Origin: a virus
Length of the DNA: 29,223 nt
Direction: 5' to 3' (one strand)
UHGV virus genome: UHGV-0364466
In this document: positions 4,071-27,823 of the stretch, piece by piece
Numbering within the stretch: the first letter of the stretch is position 1
Layout: the number at the start of each line of letters is the position of its first letter
Translations under genes and position numbers: made by a program
The notes under the pieces: generated by a model
What the model was told of the DNA's origin: nothing
The model's input: only the letters and a program-made list of their open reading frames with translations
Databases searched by the model: none

Positions 4071-5191
4071 GGTGGTGTTTTCTCCGGGTGTCTGCGGAAA
4101 TAAGCCTCAACCAGATCATCAACGCCATCATTACCATCCCCTCTGGATTTGCGATCGCTTTCAACCGGCACCAGAAAGCCTTCGCGTGGTGCAAGGCTGA
4201 CGCGGGTTTTCAGCCCGTCCTGGTCATTCAGTATCAGGGTGACTTTGCTGACCAGTAATTCCGTGGTTTTGATGGCATATTTCGAGTCATCAATAGTGAC
4301 CAGCAGGTTCGGCATCCAGAGTTGCCCGTCCTTGCGAGTCCATCCGTCAATTTCTGCCTCAAAGGTGATGGATTTTGCCAGTCTGCGGCGTTGCTCACGC
4401 AGGGCGCGGGCCTGTGCATCCTTCGCAGTAATCTTGCTGTCAGCAATGATGATCATCGGTCTGTAACGGGTCACATCACTGTCAGTGGCGGTCCCTTTCC
4501 GGGAGACGATACTTTTCGCATCAATATCATCACCCTCAGCACCATTTGCGCGGGCATACCCCTTGACGGTGTATTCGCTGAACCGGTCGCGGAAGTCTTC
4601 CTCAAAATCCAGTGTCAGCAGATTTTCTCCGAGAACCAGCTCATCAGTGGCTGTGCTGGCAGCCCGGCTGAATACCAGCTCTCCGGCGGCATTGCTGGTC
4701 ATCAGTACACCGCGTGCGCGGGAGGCACGCACCAGCGCCTCATAAACGGTTTCTGAATGGTCCAGCGTGAAGCCGGGAAAAGCTGCCGAACTTTCCTTAT
4801 CGGAAAGCTCCCAGCGAACGGTAACGCCATAAGGGGCGCTCAGGTCACGCGCAATCTGCTCCAGTGTGCGGTTTTTCCACTGTCCGCCACTGTAAACGGC
4901 AGCACAGTCAATCAGGTCAGCCGTTTTGTCACGTCCGGCGATAGTGATTTTCATGCTGTCAGCGGTCATCTGGCGTCGCCGCGAATCGATATAACCGGTG
5001 CAGACAATCTGCCCGTCGATTTCCAGCGTGAACGCCTTCCCCGGTGCCAGCCCGGATAAATCTGTACCCGGTGGCACATTCACCCCCAGCTCAAAATATC
5101 CGGCTACGGATTCAATCGAGCGGGTGACAGAGACTGACGTCCAGCCGGTAAAAAGCCTGCCATCCGTTCGCAGCGTGACGGTATTACTCAT
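4058..5191 (-). CDS. Tail protein P (Mu gp44, P2 gpD-like baseplate hub)
   Basis: 377 aa, [35 protein letters not shown]...; position between N and gp45. Confidence 0.8.
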
Positions 5192-6671
5192 TAATCACCT
5201 CAATACTGACACCACCGGGAACAAACAACGGGTTGCTGATACCGTTCCTGCGGGCCAGCCGTTGCCAGTTCCGGCTGTTTCCTGTGTAACGGTACAGGGC
5301 CACCATTGCAGGCATCGTCTCCGGCAGGCGGTGCGTTTCACTGCCCGCCAGTTGCAGCCCGCGTTTTTCCAGGTCGGCAACAACCAGCAGACGCAGTTGC
5401 GTAAGCTGAACGCTGTCTGTCGAAAAGCCCTGCTCAGATGCCGTCAGAATGACGGTATCCAGTGCAGCCCCCAGCATGGCGGCTGTTTTTCCGATATCGG
5501 ACACACTTTCAAATACCGGGGGCGTGGCTGTACCACTGTCTGAAAAGGATACCTGTGAAAAGCCGCCGTCCGGGGTTATGGCAGTTAACTGTAACTGTCC
5601 CTGTGTGACAGTAGCAGATGTGCTGCTGGCCCCGCTGGCTGTGCCGGTTGTGGTGGACGGGGCATCCAGTACAGGTGCACGGGCGGCATTATCCATCCGG
5701 CGACTGAAATCCAGTGCCGCAGTCAGTGCCTGGCTTGCTGCCTCCGCCCGGTATGTCTGTGCTGCTGCCAGCATGACGTAGTTCAGTGTGGCAATATTTT
5801 TTTCTGCAACCGGACTGTTGTACGAGGTTGTGATTGTCCCCTGTCTGCCTGCGGTGGCGGCATGGCGACGTTCGAATCGCTGCGCCAGACGGTTCCATGT
5901 GGAAAATGCTGTCCGGGTATCGCATAACGATGAAACGCCGGACAGCGCCCCCATCAGCGAGGAGGCCAGCATGGCAGGCTGGTTAATCAGGCTGGTCACA
6001 GAGCCTTTCATCGCAGAAAGCGATCCCATCAGACCGCTGACAGTCTGCGTAACCCCCAGATTGTCCACCGCATCACTGATATCATCGATGACACCGGTTA
6101 CAGCTTCCATCACGGCGGTTGCCGCCGCAGTGCCATCTTTTACGGTTTGCCAGACAGAGGACAGCGTATCTCCCAGAGAACCGGTTACAGCAACGGCCTG
6201 TGCCGGTACGGCTGCACTGGTGTCTGTCTCTGCGTCCGGGGCAGTATCCTGCAACGACGGATAAACGGTAACGGTGAACGCGTAATAATTCAGTTCATCC
6301 GCTTTAGTGCGGCATTCCCATGAATCCACCATGACGTCCACAGTGCCGAAATCAGGATGTACCAGCTCACCGCTACCCGGAGCATCAAGAGCATCCATCA
6401 GCGCACCCGCTTCATCTCTGGCTGTTTCTGCGTTGCTGTTCAGAATGCAGGCGCTGAATGTACGGGAGCGAAGCTTTTTCCCCAGGTCATTGACGCCGCC
6501 GGTATCACGTAACGGGTACTCGCGTTTAACCAGGCGACGTCCGCCAGCCTGTTTTTGCTCCTCGATGACGAGAAACGGCACGTTACGGAACGTGCCTTTG
6601 CCGGTTGTTTTCTTACCACCGCTGATTTTATCCCGGACAGCATTAACGGCATTTAAAGCATCTTCAAACAT
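5184..6671 (-). CDS. DNA circularisation protein N (Mu gp43)
   Basis: 495 aa, N-terminus [41 protein letters not shown] typical of Mu N; follows tape measure. Confidence 0.8.
5546..5580 (-). promoter_or_regulatory. Candidate C-dependent late promoter (P_P-like) inside the N gene
   Basis: Minus strand CATAACCCC (plus 5572..5580), then exactly 20 nt, then -10-like TATCCT (plus 5546..5551). Same architecture as the elements upstream of lys and I, but about 360 nt upstream of the P start. Confidence 0.3.
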
Positions 6672-9702: not shown

Positions 9703-11190
9703 TTACAGAATGAACTGAACTTGTGCCGCGAAAATGCGGAACTGGTTAATCAGATTCGGGCCGCACAGCACATCAAGACGGTCTTTGTCGTCCTTGTTAC
9801 GTGCCACATACAGCTCCTCTTTGAACGTGTCGAAATCCTCGACCAGTCCGGCGTTTTCCCATTCTTCAAACAGTGCCAGCAGCTCCGTTTTGATCACGGA
9901 TGGCGTCACCACGGCCTGACCGGTGGCAAAGCGGGTGCCATCACTTGCCAGCTTGTAGTTCGGGAATTTCTGCGTGATGCGGGTTCGCAGCGAATAACGC
10001 AGATAACTCAGCGTGGCGATGGTATTCACGTTCAGATAAGACGGATCACTGTCACCGTACTTGTTTGTGCGGTACATCGTGATCATGCGTTCAATCTGCA
10101 TTTCACCACCATCATTCACGTTAAACGTGGAGATGCCGTCAAACAGCAGCGCATTACGTTCTGACCAGGTGAAACGATCCCCCACCGCAGGCGGCATTCT
10201 TCCGGGCAACGTCAGCGTCTGGAGAGGACGCGCCGGGTCGATGGAAAGCGCCTGGCTGGCAACGGCACACAGTGTGGCGGCGTACAGGTATGACGGTTCC
10301 GGTGCACCGGCAATCCCCATACAGGAGATCAGATGGTCATTACGACTGACACCAAACGTGGAAATATCCCCATACGTGCCGGACAGCACTGTCACGGCAA
10401 AACCATCAGCCTGATTGACCGGTCCCCAGCGTTCCTGCAATTCAGTGCGTAACAGATTCAGGTTCGGTTCATCGGTATAGGGCATCACAATATATTTGTA
10501 TTGCAGATCGCCCATTCCCGCGATACTTGCGCTGATATCCGGGTTGCCATTTTTCCCAGAGGCGGCTTTGAATGCCGTGATAATCCCGTAAGGGGTGGTT
10601 TCACCCGCGTAATAGTTCCAGCGCACGTCCACGGCAGATAATGCACCCGTAAATTTTGCACTCAGAACCACATCAGCATGAGTGTCATCATCTCCGCTGT
10701 CTGCGCGAACTTCTGCCGTCACCGGTAAATCCGGCTGGCCTTTGATTCGGGCAACCAGCAGGTCAGCCAGCGCCGCTCCCGTTGCACCTGCTGCGACAGA
10801 TACCGCCAGTCGCTGACCGGCAATGTAAGTCACAAGCGAGCCGTTTTCGCCTGCCGTTCCTGACAGTGAAATTTCACCGACAGCAACATTACCGGTGCCG
10901 TTCCCCTGCGGAATACACCACAGCTCCGCCACGCGGTTAGCGTTCAGGAATGCATCTGCCATCAGTGCCAGCATGGAACCCTGACCAAACGCCGCACTGG
11001 CCTGTGAGCCGGAACGGATACGGACAGGCACGTTTGGTGCCGCACTGGCTTTACTTCCGCTTTGCCCGAACATCAGCACACGCTGACGGGGTGCCGGTGT
11101 TCCGCTGACGGCATTACTGTTATCAAATTCGATATACGTCAGAGGAACGCGAACATCTGACGGGATCGCGTTAAATGAAATATCGCTCAT
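9703..11190 (-). CDS. Contractile tail sheath protein (Mu gp39 / L)
   Basis: 495 aa, [34 protein letters not shown]...; sheath family character; ATG start verified. Confidence 0.9.
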
Positions 11191-14823: not shown

Positions 14824-14855
14824 GTCCTGCTGCTCATCATGGTTTGTGAGCAGTC

Positions 14856-14890
14856 AGTTTGCGGGAGGTGCGGGAAAATCTGGGGTTATG
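14856..14890 (-). promoter_or_regulatory. Candidate C-dependent late promoter P_I
   Basis: Minus strand CATAACCCC (plus 14882..14890), 20 nt, then -10-like CAAACT (plus 14856..14861), about 30 nt upstream of the I start; same spacing as the lys-upstream element; in the 196-bp G-I intergenic region. Confidence 0.4.
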
Positions 14891-15019
14891 CTATTTGAGT
14901 ACTGGAGAAAGAAAGTGGAAGGAAGATAAAACGGGATTCATACACCGTTAAATACCGGTTTAAAAATCCCGTGGCGCGTTTTAAAAAATCTGTGCGGCTG
15001 ATTTTATGTCTGATTCCGT

Positions 15020-15490: not shown

Positions 15491-16806
15491 TTATTCACCT
15501 CCACATGCCCCTCCAGTATGTCAATCATCCCGTCGGCAATCGCGGCTTCAAGCGACTGTGCAGATACGCGGCTGATACTGACCAGCACATCCGCCCGGTC
15601 ATTCTGTTTGCTGACAGCCTGCGATGTTCTGACCACAACTTTTGCAGTGCCGTCGCGGGTTGCCACAACATACAGCAACTGGTGGTTCTCCCTGTCCCAC
15701 AATACCGCCTGTGGTTTTGCCATCAGCGACGGCAGACGCTGTAAATCTTCCGTTTTCAGGGCGGCATCAGCAGTGGTCGCCAGACTTTTCCCGTTCATTA
15801 CAAGCAGACGGGCTGGCATATTCCCGGTGCGCTGATATACGGCTTCAGCCACGGATCCCGTCATAAACCCCAGCGCCCGGATTTCATGACCGGTCTGACG
15901 TGATCCTGCCAGGCGTTTAAGCCAGAGGGAAAAAGCAAGCTGACGCTCCCGGCTGTTATTCAGTGTCTGCACAACCTGCTCACGCAGCTGCGCGTCGTGA
16001 ATTTCCACCAGTTTTCGAATCAGTGCCTGATCCGTACCAAATGCCGCCGAACCGGGGTTATATGACCAGCCCATATCCGGCGTCATTTTTACCCGACCGT
16101 TGTCAAACGTGGTTGACGATGTGCGGAAAATCTCTCCGGTGCTTTCATCCGTACCGGCATCCACTTCGCGGGTATTCATGAATGACGCACCATAACTGAC
16201 CTGTAACCCCAGCTCTTTCATGCGGGCCGCAGACAGCGCCCGGACGCGACAGCGGCAGTTCCAGCCATTGGGCGGGTAATGCGTCTGCCAGAAAATGTCG
16301 TCATACCGGAAAACCATATTGTGCAGCCGCGCATGTTCCGGGCGTGTTCTGCCATCCATAACGGCAACGTACTGCCAGTACGGGTACAAATCTGCGGTAT
16401 TCATCATCTGTGCATAACGTCCCGCCCCGTACGCTGTACGGGTATTGACGTTATAAATGGTTGCCAGACGACGCGGACTGCCCAGCTCGATTACCTTTGC
16501 GTTTCCGTCTGCATCCACGATGATTTGTTTTCCCCACCATCCGAGTTTTTGCAGCCGGGGGGCCAGTGTGCGGGTAAATTCCTCACGGGTGATGCCTTCA
16601 CTGACAGCCCGCTCCACTTCCTCACGGATTGTGGTCAGTACATCCATCCGGGTGGCTTTGGCAACGGTAAAGGCGCGGGCGTGCGCGTCTGCCAGTTGTT
16701 CGTACCAGTTCCAGGTGATGTTGTAGCCTTTGGCGCGGAAATACGCGACAGCCTCCTTTGGCGGGAGGCGTGCGGCATACGCCAGATCAATGGTCTGCTG
16801 CGGCAT
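15487..16806 (-). CDS. Head morphogenesis protein F (Mu gp30, SPP1 gp7-like)
   Basis: ORF track starts at GTG 16842; I prefer the in-frame ATG at 16806 (MPQQTIDLAYAARL...), giving a 20-nt overlap with the portal gene. Confidence 0.85.
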   Translation of the reverse strand: MPQQTIDLAYAARLPPKEAVAYFRAKGYNITWNWYEQLADAHARAFTVAKATRMDVLTTIREEVERAVSEGITREEFTRTLAPRLQKLGWWGKQIIVDADGNAKVIELGSPRRLATIYNVNTRTAYGAGRYAQMMNTADLYPYWQYVAVMDGRTRPEHARLHNMVFRYDDIFWQTHYPPNGWNCRCRVRALSAARMKELGLQVSYGASFMNTREVDAGTDESTGEIFRTSSTTFDNGRVKMTPDMGWSYNPGSAAFGTDQALIRKLVEIHDAQLREQVVQTLNNSRERQLAFSLWLKRLAGSRQTGHEIRALGFMTGSVAEAVYQRTGNMPARLLVMNGKSLATTADAALKTEDLQRLPSLMAKPQAVLWDRENHQLLYVVATRDGTAKVVVRTSQAVSKQNDRADVLVSISRVSAQSLEAAIADGMIDILEGHVEVNK

Positions 16807-18325
16807 CCAGACGCCCCCATATATCGGCAACAAAAATGGCACGGGTCAGCATGTCGATAAGTTCTGCATCATCCATCTGCGGATATAATGAAGCGGCTTT
16901 GTTCATGGCGGCTTCCGGGCCATCTTTCAGCACAGAAAAAATGACGGGTTTCAGCAGGGGATCAACCGAACGCTGCCAGTCTTCCGGTGAGACGCCCATC
17001 CGGTCGATATCATCCTCCTGCGGGATATCTTCAGCGGATAATGCAGCCTCTTTCTGCGGACCGTTATCCATGACGACCGGTTGAGCAGTAAACACGGCTT
17101 CATCACCGACCGGCTGTGGAATATGAAGTTTTTCCTGTATCCAGGAGACCGGAATACGCATTCCCGCCGCCAGTTTCGGAATGGCGTCAGACAGTGCCGT
17201 AATATCACCCGCTTCACTGGTATCAAATACAATGCCCGGCAGGCGGTTAATATCAATGGTGCTGTCACTGTTCAGTGCCAGCAGGGGATAAATCAGATCA
17301 CGGTTAATACTGCGGGCAAGCTGGCCCACATCCGCGTTACGGATTTCCCGGCGAACCTCATCATGCACTTCACCCAGCGACCGCGCGCCTTTATCGCCAG
17401 CCTCTGTGGTCAGGGTGCCGCCCAGAATGGCTTTTGAAATCGCTTTTTCTGCCCAGCCAATCATCGCCATAAAAGGGTCTGACTGACCATCTGCGGCGCT
17501 CTGAAAATCCAGCGTCATCCCCATCGGAATAATGCCACCGGCACGTCGCCCGATATCCATCACGGCCTGCATCAGCGTGGCTTTCTCGCGGTTCGTTGAG
17601 CCGGTCGGATATTTACCGACGCGCATGGGGAGTCCGTAAATTTCCAGAAACTCTGCAAAATCACGCACGGAATAGTTTTTAAAAATAAAAGGCCAGATAA
17701 GCGTGCGCACAAGGCCATTGGTGCCGACATACCCGGTGCGGGATTTGGCCCGGTGCATAAACCAGCCGAACGGTTGCAGCTCCAGCCCGTGATAAGACGC
17801 ATCACGCAGGCGTAATTCGTTCAGATTGTCGGGGTTCGCGCAGAACAGCGCCGGATCGCGATGATGCAGCGCCACCGGCACGCGCATTTTCCCCAGCCAG
17901 CCCCATTCAATCTCCTGCATGGAATAGCCCTTGAGAATGGCATCACCGGCATCAAACAGGGCATCTTCAAACCACGCCGCATCATGCAGATATTCATTCA
18001 GCATGTCGGCGTCTTTTTTCTCCTGTGCGCTGGCATCACGTGCCGGAGCGATGCGCCATTCCAGCGCCTGAATGGCAAGGCGGCGTTTGCTCAGTTCGGA
18101 AAAAAGGTGGGTGTCCTTTTCTTCCATATCAAAGGCCAGGTCAGCCTGTGCTGTCAGATCACCGCGTTCGGCATCACGCAGCATCTGCGCGGCCCGGTTC
18201 GGCGTCACACCACTGGAAGGATGCTCCTGCGTACGCTTCATGACCATTGCCAGCTCATCGCTGCGGGTCTGCATTTCATCGTCAAAATCAAACGGCTGCC
18301 CGGAAATATCCAGAATACGGCCCAT
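16787..18325 (-). CDS. Portal protein H (Mu gp29, DUF935)
   Basis: 512 aa, MGRILDISGQPFDFDDEMQTRSDELAMVMKRTQEHP...; ATG verified; downstream of terminase. Confidence 0.9.
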   Translation of the reverse strand: MGRILDISGQPFDFDDEMQTRSDELAMVMKRTQEHPSSGVTPNRAAQMLRDAERGDLTAQADLAFDMEEKDTHLFSELSKRRLAIQALEWRIAPARDASAQEKKDADMLNEYLHDAAWFEDALFDAGDAILKGYSMQEIEWGWLGKMRVPVALHHRDPALFCANPDNLNELRLRDASYHGLELQPFGWFMHRAKSRTGYVGTNGLVRTLIWPFIFKNYSVRDFAEFLEIYGLPMRVGKYPTGSTNREKATLMQAVMDIGRRAGGIIPMGMTLDFQSAADGQSDPFMAMIGWAEKAISKAILGGTLTTEAGDKGARSLGEVHDEVRREIRNADVGQLARSINRDLIYPLLALNSDSTIDINRLPGIVFDTSEAGDITALSDAIPKLAAGMRIPVSWIQEKLHIPQPVGDEAVFTAQPVVMDNGPQKEAALSAEDIPQEDDIDRMGVSPEDWQRSVDPLLKPVIFSVLKDGPEAAMNKAASLYPQMDDAELIDMLTRAIFVADIWGRLDAAADH

Positions 18326-19980
18326 TACCAGCCCCCTCGTTCAAACTGGTGATAATCATCAAAATCATCGTTATCAACATCATCACCACGGTGGCGTGGT
18401 GGCAGCGCCTGTATGCTGTCCTCGTCGATAACAAAACCATTCATATAAGACGCTCTGACAGCCATACAGAGCGCCACGGCAAAGTCGCCATGTCGTCGGC
18501 CTTTACCGCCTTCATCTTTTGTGCGCCCCTTATCAATCTGCGGAATACCTTTGTCCACCTTGATATGGAGCAGGTCATCAAGTGTGGTCTGGTGCCGGGC
18601 AATCGTGATGTTCTGCGCTTCAAACTCGCCTTTCAGTTTTGGCATCCACTCCTGATACCAGGATGCGGTCAGATTCACACAGTCGATCATCTCCGGGCCA
18701 TAAATCAGACGGGCGGCTTCTGCCAGATAACCGCCGTTACCGGTGGCATCAAATGCAGCGCCGGTAAAACGGGGCAAACGGGACAGAATGAATAAAAGGA
18801 TTTGTCGCTGCTGGTCATAGGTCACATTACGCAGCTCCACGCGGAAACATTCGCGTTTGCGTAAGTCTGGAGTGATGGCAAGCGGCACAAACACCGTCAG
18901 GTCGCCACGGCGTGCAAAGTCTTCGCCCAGTACGTGTTTATTGAGCGGCGACAGCGCATCGAGCAACGGGAGCAGCTCCTGTTCACACCAGTCCTGAACG
19001 ATGCCGTGGCGCATTTGTGGTGTCAGCGATTCAAAATCGTCCGGGGCTTCAAAACGCAGAATCGGGATATCCCGCGCTGGCGTCATGGCGGCTTCAATCA
19101 GCACGCGTGACAGATAAGCGCCCCCGGATTTTTTAGGAATGCAGCCGTATTCCTCGTCGGCACTCTCTTTATTCGGCGCATTCCGGTACAAGCCATCACG
19201 CCAGGCTTTTTCCGCTTCCGGCGACCACGGCTGATTCGTGACGTAACAGATACGTCGGTACAACCCGTCAGCGATGGCATCATCCAGCGTGATGCGGTGA
19301 ACGCTGTAATCCTTGCGCCCCTCGCGCGCATCCTGAATGTACTGGTTAAACAGGTTATCGACGCCGTTATGTGTCGATATGATGCGCACGCTGGCACCCC
19401 ACATGTTTAGTGCAAAGGCCGCTTTCAGCAGTTCGTCCAGGGCTTCATGGAATGCCGCCTCATCAATCACCACGTCCCCCTGCAAACCACGCAGGTTAGA
19501 CGGGCGGCTTGACAGCGCCTGTATCTTAAATCCGCTGTTCGGAAAGCGGATCATGTAGGTGAGGATTTCTTCTTTTTTGTCGCTGTCCCAGAAGGTCTGC
19601 TCCCAGACGTCAGCCTTTGCCAGTTGGTTAAAGGCGCGGGCAAACAGGGCACAGGCGGCGATGTATTCCAGCGCCATTTCCTGACGGGAACCCACATAAA
19701 AGACGTTGCGACCACCGCGACGCTTCGGCTTTGCGGCCGTCATGACATTGCGGCCCGCTTCAGCCCATGTCAGACCGGTTCGACGGGATTTTTCAGCGAT
19801 GCAAATCTGGCTTTCATCCTCAAACCAGCGGCGCTGATAGCCCAGAAAAACCGGTTCATTGCGGGGCTGTGCTTCCCCGATATCGGTCACGATATTCACG
19901 CCGAGCAGTCCGGCTTCCTCACGCAGGTTGATTTTGCGGGGCGCATGAAGGGCTTTAAGTTTGCTTTCTCTGGTGCTCAC
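18325..19980 (-). CDS. Terminase large subunit (Mu gp28)
   Basis: 551 aa; Walker-B-like GDVVIDEAAF; position before portal. The first in-frame start is GTG at 19980 with no obvious SD, so the start is uncertain. Confidence 0.85.
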   Translation of the reverse strand: MSTRESKLKALHAPRKINLREEAGLLGVNIVTDIGEAQPRNEPVFLGYQRRWFEDESQICIAEKSRRTGLTWAEAGRNVMTAAKPKRRGGRNVFYVGSRQEMALEYIAACALFARAFNQLAKADVWEQTFWDSDKKEEILTYMIRFPNSGFKIQALSSRPSNLRGLQGDVVIDEAAFHEALDELLKAAFALNMWGASVRIISTHNGVDNLFNQYIQDAREGRKDYSVHRITLDDAIADGLYRRICYVTNQPWSPEAEKAWRDGLYRNAPNKESADEEYGCIPKKSGGAYLSRVLIEAAMTPARDIPILRFEAPDDFESLTPQMRHGIVQDWCEQELLPLLDALSPLNKHVLGEDFARRGDLTVFVPLAITPDLRKRECFRVELRNVTYDQQRQILLFILSRLPRFTGAAFDATGNGGYLAEAARLIYGPEMIDCVNLTASWYQEWMPKLKGEFEAQNITIARHQTTLDDLLHIKVDKGIPQIDKGRTKDEGGKGRRHGDFAVALCMAVRASYMNGFVIDEDSIQALPPRHRGDDVDNDDFDDYHQFERGGW

Positions 19981-20035
19981 GGGTGAAAAATCCGGTATAA
20001 ATTTTCAGGCATTAATCAGTAAAAAAGAGGTTTTT

Positions 20036-20230
20036 ATGAAAGAGAAACTGACCATTGATCAAAAAATCGAAATTGCCCGGATAGCCGTGCAAATGTTTGA
20101 ATCCACCCGGGCAAAAGGCGTTTCACTTGAGATCTCCTGTTCAGGAAAAGCATCAGTGGAAGAAAACACATTTAATGCTTTCTACAAAATTGTTGAAAAA
20201 ACCGTTATCGGTGGACCTGAGAATAACTGA
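20036..20230 (+). CDS. Hypothetical small protein (64 aa) on the opposite strand, between terminase genes
   Basis: ATG at 20036 preceded by AAAGAGG SD at 5 nt; MKEKLTIDQKIEIARIAVQMFESTRAKGVSLEISCSGKASVEENTFNAFYKIVEKTVIGGPENN; AT-rich surroundings; GC hairpin (GGCCCG-N7-CGGGCC) 6 nt after the stop. Confidence 0.5.
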   Translation: MKEKLTIDQKIEIARIAVQMFESTRAKGVSLEISCSGKASVEENTFNAFYKIVEKTVIGGPENN

Positions 20231-20402
20231 TCACCTGGCCCGCTGTAGCCGGGCCATCCACCAGTTGCATAACCAGATACAGGGCCTCGGCCATAATTCG
20301 TGGATGGACTTCCGGATCCTCATCAATCTGTTTTTTCACAACGGGCCACAGTGCCATTGCCAGTTCTGTTGAGGTCTTGTATTTAGTTTTTTCATCCGCC
20401 AT
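20205..20402 (-). CDS. Hypothetical small protein (65 aa)
   Basis: GAGGAG SD 6 nt before the second ATG (20402); MADEKTKYKTSTELAMALWPVVKKQIDEDPEVHPRIMAEALYLVMQLVDGPATAGQVISYSQVHR; 3' end overlaps the plus-strand gene by 26 nt. Confidence 0.45.
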   Translation of the reverse strand: MADEKTKYKTSTELAMALWPVVKKQIDEDPEVHPRIMAEALYLVMQLVDGPATAGQVISYSQVHR

Positions 20403-20412
20403 TTTCATCTCC

Positions 20413-20583
20413 TCAGGACAAAGTCCTTAGTTGTTTTATGGTCGTATGCCATGAATTGCCTGAAGCCATAGCCTGAACAAGCACATCCCGAATCTGGTGT
20501 ATCAACCGGACATCAGACAATGTTGCAATCCTGAAGGCTTTTTTATGGGCACTGATTAGCTGTGCTTTGTAATTATTTTTCAT
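20413..20583 (-). CDS. Hypothetical small protein (56 aa)
   Basis: ATG at 20583, 8 nt after the gp27 stop; MKNNYKAQLISAHKKAFRIATLSDVRLIHQIRDVLVQAMASGNSWHTTIKQLRTLS; weak SD. The upstream part of the 121-aa track ORF is out of frame with gp27 and rejected. Confidence 0.4.
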   Translation of the reverse strand: MKNNYKAQLISAHKKAFRIATLSDVRLIHQIRDVLVQAMASGNSWHTTIKQLRTLS

Positions 20584-20593
20584 AACGTAACGC

Positions 20594-21169
20594 CTACGCT
20601 TTCCCCAGCAGTACATCACGGATGCGCTGCTCCAGTTCTTCGCTGATGCCATCCTGCCCGCGCAGTTCTTCACTGACGGCGTTTGCCGCTTCTTCTGCGA
20701 ACGCCTGGCGGATTTCTTTCTCGCGCCGGTGGCTGGACATTGCTGTGGATTCCAGACGCTGTGCCGCCAGCATGGCATTTTTCAGCAGGTCAATATCCAC
20801 GTCAGATTCCGGGTTTTCGATTTGCCGCATCATGGCCTTAAAAAGCTGGCTGCGGGCCATTTCCAGAATCAGCTTTGTGGTTTCGCCCATTGGCTTGTCG
20901 CCAAGCTCTGCGGTCAGTGCTGACGTCATTTCACGCATCTGTCGCAGGTTATGGCCTACCTGCTCGACGTTCGTCGCGTAACGGTTCAGACCGGAACGGG
21001 AGAGTTTCATCTCATCCGGCAGGCCAGCGTCTTCAATCAGTGCGTTAATTTCTTCAAGAATACGGGCCTGTGGGATCGCCTTATCACGCAGCATTTCATG
21101 CAGCGTTTTACGTACGTTTTCCGGCAGTAAATCCACTTTTGAAGCCCGTCCCCGTGTTTTCCTGTCCAT
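20594..21169 (-). CDS. Mu gp27-like protein (DUF3486, putative small terminase subunit)
   Basis: Start moved to ATG 21169 (MDRKTRGRASKVDLLPENVRKTLHEML...) with AGGAGG SD at 5 nt; 191 aa. Confidence 0.8.
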   Translation of the reverse strand: MDRKTRGRASKVDLLPENVRKTLHEMLRDKAIPQARILEEINALIEDAGLPDEMKLSRSGLNRYATNVEQVGHNLRQMREMTSALTAELGDKPMGETTKLILEMARSQLFKAMMRQIENPESDVDIDLLKNAMLAAQRLESTAMSSHRREKEIRQAFAEEAANAVSEELRGQDGISEELEQRIRDVLLGKA

Positions 21170-23011: not shown

Positions 23012-23038
23012 GCTTCCCTGAAAAAATGCTCTGATGGC

Positions 23039-23073
23039 AGTCTAAAAAATCAGGTGACAGGTGCGGGATTATG
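23039..23073 (-). promoter_or_regulatory. Candidate C-dependent late promoter P_lys
   Basis: Minus strand CATAATCCC (plus 23065..23073), 20 nt, then -10-like TAGACT (plus 23039..23044), about 25 nt upstream of the lys ATG; overlapped by direct repeats GGTGACAGG at 23053..23061 and 23073..23081. Confidence 0.45.
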
Positions 23074-23081
23074 GTGACAGG

Positions 23082-23108
23082 AAATAACCGGCAGGATGCC
23101 GGTTATTT
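23082..23108 (-). terminator. Intrinsic terminator at the end of the C gene (end of middle transcript)
   Basis: Perfect 12-bp inverted repeat AAATAACCGGCA / TGCCGGTTATTT with 3-nt loop; GC core then UUAUUU on the minus-strand RNA; overlaps the C stop codon (23103..23105). Confidence 0.6.
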
Positions 23109-23525
23109 TGGGCTTTCAGGTGAGAACAGATCAGGCTGATGACGCCGTGTATGCAGCTTTCTCTGGCGGGCAATAATCTGGTAGATCTGCGGCTGGGACA
23201 GGCGGTACTGGCGACGCAGTTCTTCCATGTTACGACCATTGAACTGGCAGTAAAGCAAATCGTCGCGTAACGCGGTCAGGATAGTATCGCCACAGGGGAT
23301 ATAAAACTGCCGCCCACCCAGAAAACAGGACAGGGCAACGGCCTGTTTACGGGCAAGCTCACGGGGATTGCTGACGTTCTGGCGTTTCAGTTCGTTTTCC
23401 AGAACATCAATCAGATCAACCACCGAACGGGGCCAGCGTGATTCCAGTTCCGGGGCCGGGATGTTATCAATATGTCCGATTAACTGGCGAATTGCCGGAT
23501 CGTGTTCAAATAAATCATGCTGCAT
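23103..23525 (-). CDS. C: Late transcription activator C (Mor/C family)
   Basis: 140 aa, MQHDLFEHDPAIRQLIGHIDNIPAPELESRWPRSVVDLIDVLENEL...; Mor/C-family; directly upstream of lys; ATG verified. Confidence 0.85.
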   Translation of the reverse strand: MQHDLFEHDPAIRQLIGHIDNIPAPELESRWPRSVVDLIDVLENELKRQNVSNPRELARKQAVALSCFLGGRQFYIPCGDTILTALRDDLLYCQFNGRNMEELRRQYRLSQPQIYQIIARQRKLHTRRHQPDLFSPESPK

Positions 23526-27200: not shown

Positions 27201-27298
27201 GTTTTATTCCTCAGTAATCTGTTTCAGGCGCGAGCAATCCCCTGACGCATCGCGCCATAATTAAAAGAATGTGAATTAATTAAATATTAATGGTGGTA

Positions 27299-27823
27299 TT
27301 AAATACCGGCTTCCTGTTCAAACGGAATAATGGAAAAATCTTCAATTCCCGATTTAACCGTAATTCCGGCAACACCTGCGACGGCTTTTGGTTCCAGTAA
27401 AATCGCCTCCTTGTTGATTTCCTGCTTCGTGCGAATAAAGCGTTGCAGGCCAAGACGCTCCAGCGTTTCCATCACTGCATCCATACCACGAATACTTACT
27501 GATGGTGGACGGACCCGCCACGATACATCACCGGTGACAAGATTCGCCGTCTTCACTTTGCCGCCGTTCGTCAGTTCGTCGCGGTTCGCTTCACACCATC
27601 CCTGAACGCCTTTTGAAAGGGTTTCAATATCGGTTTTAATCGGTGCAATCCGGGCCGCAAATTTCTCCGTAATTTCCGCGATGGCATCATTCATTTCCGT
27701 TTCCAGACGTGATGCTTCGCGCTGTAAATCCCCGATGCGTTTAATATCGGTAATCACCGCATCGCGGTTTTGTGGCATATAAGCCGCTGCGGCACTCTTG
27801 ATACGTTTTGCTGGTTTAGCCAT
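27299..27823 (-). CDS. gam: Host-nuclease inhibitor Gam (Mu Gam, DNA-end binding)
   Basis: 174 aa, MAKPAKRIKSAAAAY...DIKRIGDLQREASRLETEMNDAIAEITEKFAARIAPIKTDIETLSKGVQGWCEANRDELTNGGKVKTANLVTGDVSWRV...; recognised as essentially Mu Gam from memory; ATG verified. Confidence 0.9.
   Translation of the reverse strand: MAKPAKRIKSAAAAYMPQNRDAVITDIKRIGDLQREASRLETEMNDAIAEITEKFAARIAPIKTDIETLSKGVQGWCEANRDELTNGGKVKTANLVTGDVSWRVRPPSVSIRGMDAVMETLERLGLQRFIRTKQEINKEAILLEPKAVAGVAGITVKSGIEDFSIIPFEQEAGI

Follow-up and report, generated by a model that had tools for sequence, protein, structure and literature searches.

Three probable C-dependent late promoters with a fixed box-to-hexamer spacing in a close relative of bacteriophage Mu

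Introduction

The stretch of viral DNA analysed here (29,223 nucleotides of virus genome UHGV-0364466; hereafter the window) carries the short word CATAAYCCC upstream of three late genes, lys, I and P, each time at the same distance from a hexamer resembling a -10 element. The question raised by this locus, and by the copy at 14856-14890 upstream of I in particular, is whether this arrangement marks promoters switched on by the phage activator C, or whether the word recurs by chance, is kept for the protein it encodes, or is read by some other factor.

The three late promoters are already known in detail. The Mu late promoters were reportedly mapped by Margolin et al. in 1989, and Chiang and Howe are said to have carried out promoter mutagenesis of Plys in 1993. 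A kinetic study of the promoters from 2015, footprints and a GenBank annotation also exist, and the discovery value of the sites is therefore small. The analysis serves instead as a positive control, in which a reader given only the letters recovered three of the four late promoters that Mu possesses, the intragenic PP included, on the strength of a shared half-site and a fixed spacing. Two small comparative additions are made: diverged Mu-like phages keep the 20-nt register from box to hexamer strictly, and the box itself has changed in a lineage-specific manner together with C.

Sequence and spacing of the three sites

The preliminary description had proposed CATAA(T/C)CCC, exactly 20 nt and a -10-like hexamer at three sites, and both coordinates and spacing were confirmed when the positions were re-read. 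All three sites lie on the minus strand with a gap of exactly 20 nt between box and hexamer:

23073-23039, minus strand: Plys box-to-hexamer stretch, CATAATCCC gcacctgtcacctgattttt TAGACT
14890-14856, minus strand: PI box-to-hexamer stretch, CATAACCCC agattttcccgcacctcccg CAAACT
5580-5546, minus strand: PP box-to-hexamer stretch, CATAACCCC ggacggcggcttttcacagg TATCCT

The distances to the start codons, given earlier as about 25-30 nt and, for P, about 360 nt, were measured as 30 nt from TAGACT to the annotated lys ATG, 32 nt from CAAACT to the I ATG (14823) and 354 nt from TATCCT to the P ATG (5191), with the PP site lying inside the N ORF (5184-6671, 495 codons). The hexamers share an A at position 2 and a T at position 6. 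The headline form of the proposed pattern, CATAAYCCC-N20-NANACT, matches only the lys and I sites and fails at P (TATCCT), as the same description concedes in its own text; CATAAYCCC-N20-NANNCT covers all three.

CATAAYCCC occurs three times in the window, always on the minus strand, against an expectation of 0.49 from dinucleotide shuffles and 0.45 from an analytic first-order Markov model. The NANNCT form had no hit in 100 shuffles, so that a similar rate in shuffled sequence was not seen, and its analytic expectation is about 0.005 per window; as the sites themselves supplied the pattern, the shuffle and Markov figures overstate significance. Independent support for the promoter reading comes from the Mu annotation and from relatives. 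A relaxed pattern, MATAAYCMC-N20-NANNNT, has exactly four matches in the whole 36.7-kb Mu genome, which are the annotated late promoters (0.05 expected), and in the window it returns exactly the three sites (0.04 expected). Nine-mers with one mismatch to the box are not significantly enriched in the window (11 observed, 6.4 expected). A single further box comes close to perfect, TATAACCCC at 16054-16062 (minus strand), but it lacks a -10-like hexamer at the required distance, and a scan for further late promoters with ATAAYCNC-N19-21-TANNNT returned nothing beyond the known sites.

The 10-mer TCCCGCACCT is present in two of the spacers, at 23055-23064 in Plys and 14862-14871 in PI (minus strand), in differing registers: the Plys copy lies directly behind CATAA and the PI copy 11 nt further downstream. 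This common 10-mer was already pointed out in the Figure 1 legend of PMC4461284. Through collinearity with Mu 17879-17880, window positions ~14999-15000, about 110 bp upstream of the PI box, correspond to the annotated gyrase cut site of Mu (the central strong gyrase site).

Correspondence to the late promoters of Mu

The minus strand of the window is collinear with the plus strand of Mu at 97.7-97.9% identity and spans roughly Mu 4265-32878. Around the I site, a piece of 1.2 kb shows 98.6-98.9% identity to SfMu, Mu, D108 and several Yersinia Mu-like phages. On these identities the source phage is a relative of Mu, ~98% identical to it, rather than Mu itself. The Mu record AF083977 contains four 67-bp late-promoter features, described as activated by C and citing PMID 2522923:

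AF083977 10403-10469: Mu late promoter before lys
AF083977 17977-18043: Mu late promoter before I
AF083977 27287-27353: Mu late promoter inside N (Mu_43), upstream of P
AF083977 35693-35759: Mu late promoter before com/mom (Pmom)

Compared with these GenBank features, the three sites of the window map base for base onto the first three, with zero changes in box and hexamer, and occupy the same genomic places as Plys, PI and PP of Mu (after C, before I, and within N upstream of P). The proposal that they are the C-activated late promoters of lys, I and P is supported. Over 121 nt per promoter, the differences from Mu number two at Plys, one at PI and one at PP. The two at Plys are a C to T change at about -25, which is the sole box-to-hexamer difference from Mu across the three sites, and, at +5, A to C; both lie outside any recognised element. 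All four Mu features are in one register: the first base of the box is feature position 13 and the last base of the hexamer position 47. Pmom, which has AATAACCAC-N20-TAAGAT and, as its best dyad, TTAT-N6-ATAA, lies outside the window, given the span of the latter on the Mu map. The suggestion that the third site is internal to N and would imply a long leader also agrees with the annotation, since the corresponding Mu feature is placed inside N; the leader would be ~348 nt.

Transferred to the window, the promoters and their parts are as follows, with transcription starts as predicted from the register:

23103..23525, minus strand: gene C, late-gene activator, 140 aa, Mor/C family; corresponds to Mu_21
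23019..23085, minus strand: probable Plys late promoter, ~-53 to +14; counterpart of Mu feature 10403-10469
23065..23073, minus strand: Plys box CATAATCCC, ~-41 to -33; the proximal half (ATAA) of the C dyad together with downstream CCC
23039..23044, minus strand: Plys -10 hexamer TAGACT; predicted +1 at 23032
14836..14902, minus strand: probable PI late promoter; equals Mu feature 17977-18043, no difference from Mu across the feature
14882..14890, minus strand: PI box CATAACCCC, ~-41 to -33; AA and C columns invariant in an unanchored MAFFT alignment of 8 lineages
14856..14861, minus strand: PI -10 hexamer CAAACT; predicted +1 at 14849; A-11, A-9 and T-7 invariant in the MAFFT alignment
5526..5592, minus strand: probable PP late promoter, within gene N; equals Mu feature 27287-27353, no difference from Mu across the feature
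5572..5580, minus strand: PP box CATAACCCC, part of TTAA-N5-ATAA, whose TTAA lies upstream at 5585-5588
5546..5551, minus strand: PP -10 hexamer TATCCT; predicted +1 at 5539, leader to the P start at 5191

The box as one half of the C site

The target of Mu C is an imperfect dyad of 16 bp with its centre at -43.5 (Jiang & Howe, PMC2582627), for which the consensus TTAT-N5-6-ATAA has been given (PMC12867686). The DNase I footprint of C at Mu Plys and Pmom extends from about -30 to -55, Mu Plys requires -52 to -34, and the bases that directly adjoin the dyad on its downstream side are critical as well (PMC2582627). Placed on this scale, CATAAYCCC (-41 to -33) is the promoter-proximal ATAA half (-40 to -37) with the adjacent C-rich bases, and not a complete C site. 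The reading of the sites as candidate C-binding promoters is thus upheld for the promoters themselves, and CATAAYCCC as the whole C site is replaced by a half-site plus neighbouring bases.

At all three sites ATAA is present without mismatch and at one fixed distance from the -10. For the upstream half, PP has TTAA-N5, but Plys (TCCT) and PI (CTCA) have degenerate versions, as in Mu itself, so a reader working by eye saw the downstream half only. These weak upstream halves are consistent with the 'imperfect' dyad of PMC2582627, and with the upstream half this weak in Plys and PI the dyad could not be established from the letters by themselves. At Pmom, centring the dyad TTATgccccaATAA at -43.5 places +1 at 7 nt after the last base of the hexamer; given the register common to the four promoters, this offset would apply to the others too. 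From this centre and the common register of the GenBank features, we infer starts at 23032, 14849 and 5539.

The Mu late promoters have a -10 hexamer and no -35 hexamer (PMC2582627). In simple scans, no sigma-70 -35/-10 pair was found at any of the three sites of the window, as is expected of activator-dependent promoters.

The product of gene C matches the Pfam Mor family (PF08765, 116 bits), and its stop codon lies ~30 nt upstream of the Plys box. Behind this stop codon is the hairpin AAATAACCGGCATCCTGCCGGTTATTT (23078-23107, minus strand), a terminator in the Mu annotation (TransTermHP). A simple terminator scan did not call this post-C hairpin. The hairpin runs into the upstream edge of Plys, and a TTAT at about -55 to -52 comes from its 3' arm.

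Conservation and change in diverged Mu-like phages

Relatives were taken as loci encoding homologues of C, I and P, with the useful diversity coming from viral contigs; a scan of genome contigs with C yielded one locus only, from Erwinia tracheiphila. Box, 20-nt spacing and hexamer are kept at the three orthologous positions in diverged Mu-like phages, while spacers and flanks diverge. At Plys, a lineage whose C is 54% identical has CATAATCCC-N20-TATTCT with an unrelated spacer, and the Erwinia-type lineage (C 66-67% identical) has CGGAATCCC-N20-TATTCT. At PI, where the I proteins of the relatives compared are 64-77% identical, Mu-type lineages have (C/G)ATAACCCC-N20-(C/G)A(A/C)A(A/C)T and the Erwinia type has CGGAATC(C/A)C-N20-AA(A/G)AAT. 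When eight PI upstream regions were aligned with MAFFT, unanchored, the invariant columns were -51, -49 and -47 in the upstream half-site, the AA and C of the box, -11, -9, -7 and -6, and the RBS/ATG. At PP, lineages with a P protein 67-70% identical keep CAGTTAA..CCATAACC(A/C)C-N20-TA(A/G)T(A/C)T, and the conserved stretch CAGTTAA-N-CCATAACC sits in N coding sequence that is otherwise divergent and contains indels. The most distant P relatives (64%; loci L087, L089 and L090) have no recognisable box at the PP position. Mean pairwise identity was 0.75-0.89 for the box, 0.67-0.83 for the hexamer and 0.37-0.52 for the spacer, in an alignment anchored on the motif, so that the box and hexamer values are inflated.

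In the Erwinia-type lineage, Plys and PI share CAGATACCGGAATC, and the HTH region of its C departs from that of Mu C by Y108H, P112T and Q116D. Where Mu-type phages have CATAAYCCC, this lineage has CAGATACCGGAATC(C/A)CC at the two promoters. A box that changes alongside C is consistent with co-evolution of activator and site. It may be that Mu-like phages of enterobacteria follow a rigid box-N20-hexamer code for their late promoters, with the box co-evolving with each phage's own C; the odds for and against this generalisation appear evenly balanced. If true, the sequence of an uncultured Mu-like prophage could be enough to predict its late regulon and the specificity of its activator.

In Erwinia tracheiphila ICMP 5845 (L004, ~2030-2110) and in a second locus (L027), the lys homologue that follows the Erwinia-type Plys starts with a 9-bp tandem repeat, CCCCAAAAG, in many copies. 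The repeat encodes Pro-Lys-Ser repeats and is present in a single copy only in the related loci L026 and L028. The endolysin may carry here, at its N-terminus, a variable-number repeat.

Proposed mechanism

Taken together, the three sites are very probably C-dependent late promoters, the equivalents of Plys, PI and PP of Mu. The identity with the Mu promoters, the non-random occurrence, the lack of a -35/-10 pair and the conservation in relatives were computed here; the binding of C, its footprints, the starts mapped by S1 and the activation step are those published for Mu itself, and the same mechanism would be expected in this ~98%-identical phage. C would be produced from the Mor-dependent middle transcript, and at each promoter the C site would take the place of a usable -35. 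Bound C would let the host RNA polymerase holoenzyme reach productive open complexes, and so switch on the operons for lysis/head (lys), head (I) and tail/baseplate (P), with PP firing within the N coding sequence and producing a leader of ~350 nt.

Mu start sites have been S1-mapped, and together with in vitro transcription this puts C-dependent initiation about 7 nt past the -10 hexamer (PMC4461284). The same study reports that RNA polymerase binds Plys, PI and PP without C in vitro and that C is needed there for isomerisation, whereas at Pmom C is needed for RNA polymerase recruitment and promoter escape; Pmom is in this respect mechanistically distinct from the other three. A cryo-EM preprint places C at Pmom just upstream of a non-optimal -35 element (bioRxiv 10.1101/2025.05.02.651988), and C has been connected with the beta sliding clamp in a paper from 2026 (PMC12867686). 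The middle promoter Pm of Mu, which responds to Mor, offers a further comparison: its activator belongs to the same Mor/C family, it has a -10 without a good -35, and an imperfect dyad lies just upstream of, or overlaps, the -35 region (PMC2582627; bioRxiv 10.1101/2025.05.02.651988). Pm differs in its activator and recognition sequence, and Mor depends on the alpha-CTD and sigma-CTD, which C at Pmom can do without (PMC2582627).

Alternative explanations

Chance recurrence of a short C-rich word in 29 kb, with no shared function among the three matches, would sit well with a pattern built post hoc from the same data and with one-mismatch 9-mers that are not significantly enriched (11 vs 6.4). 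Against this, three exact copies were found where 0.45-0.49 are expected, all on the transcribed strand, and each has xAxxCT exactly 20 nt behind it, a combination with an expectation of ~0.005 and no occurrence in 100 shuffles. All three fall in independently annotated promoter features and are kept in diverged phages despite diverged spacers, which leaves coincidence with a practically negligible probability. The box could also be an odd -35 element that sigma-70 reads directly, or belong to some factor different from C (Mor, for instance, or a host protein); it adjoins the -35 region, and in Pmom the overlapping ACCACA has been proposed as a poor -35 element (PMC2582627). The 9-mer is unlike TTGACA, however, the scans contained no -35/-10 pair, and C footprints cover -30 to -55 at Plys and Pmom, with activation needing C (PMC2582627, PMC4461284). 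Moreover, the Erwinia-type lineage, with its diverged C, altered the box in concert at Plys and PI, as is expected of a phage-encoded reader and not of sigma-70. A reader other than C is therefore hardly credible.

The PP site (5546-5580) calls for separate consideration, as conservation there could reflect only the coding of protein N, with P transcribed by read-through from PI. The site does lie inside the N ORF, N and P have no separating terminator or intergenic gap, and the box is absent at this position in the most distant relatives. Even so, the Mu late-promoter annotation falls exactly here and derives from S1 mapping, and C-dependent transcription from PP in vitro is described in PMC4461284. 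The box and the hexamer at N20 are also kept, where P is 67-70% identical, while the surrounding N codons diverge and gain indels, and rare codons, TTA (Leu) and ATA (Ile), are among those conserved, pointing to constraint on the DNA rather than on the protein. Purely coding conservation is thus very unlikely, and a C-dependent PP remains the favoured interpretation of this site as well.

An insertion between D and E

Outside the promoters, the window differs from Mu by a 624-bp segment (19980-20603) that is absent from Mu and lies between the genes for the small (D) and large (E) terminase subunits. Its GC content is 0.37-0.47 compared with ~0.55 in the flanks. Small ORFs of 67 aa (minus strand, 20205-20408) and 89 aa (plus strand, 19961-20230) have no Pfam hit. 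Within the phage collection the segment has only a partial match, at 88.5%, in Yersinia phage vB_YpM_Tongde, and it is present in complete form in one of 5426 complete E. coli genomes (strain RM8082). In these respects the segment looks like a moron-type insertion.
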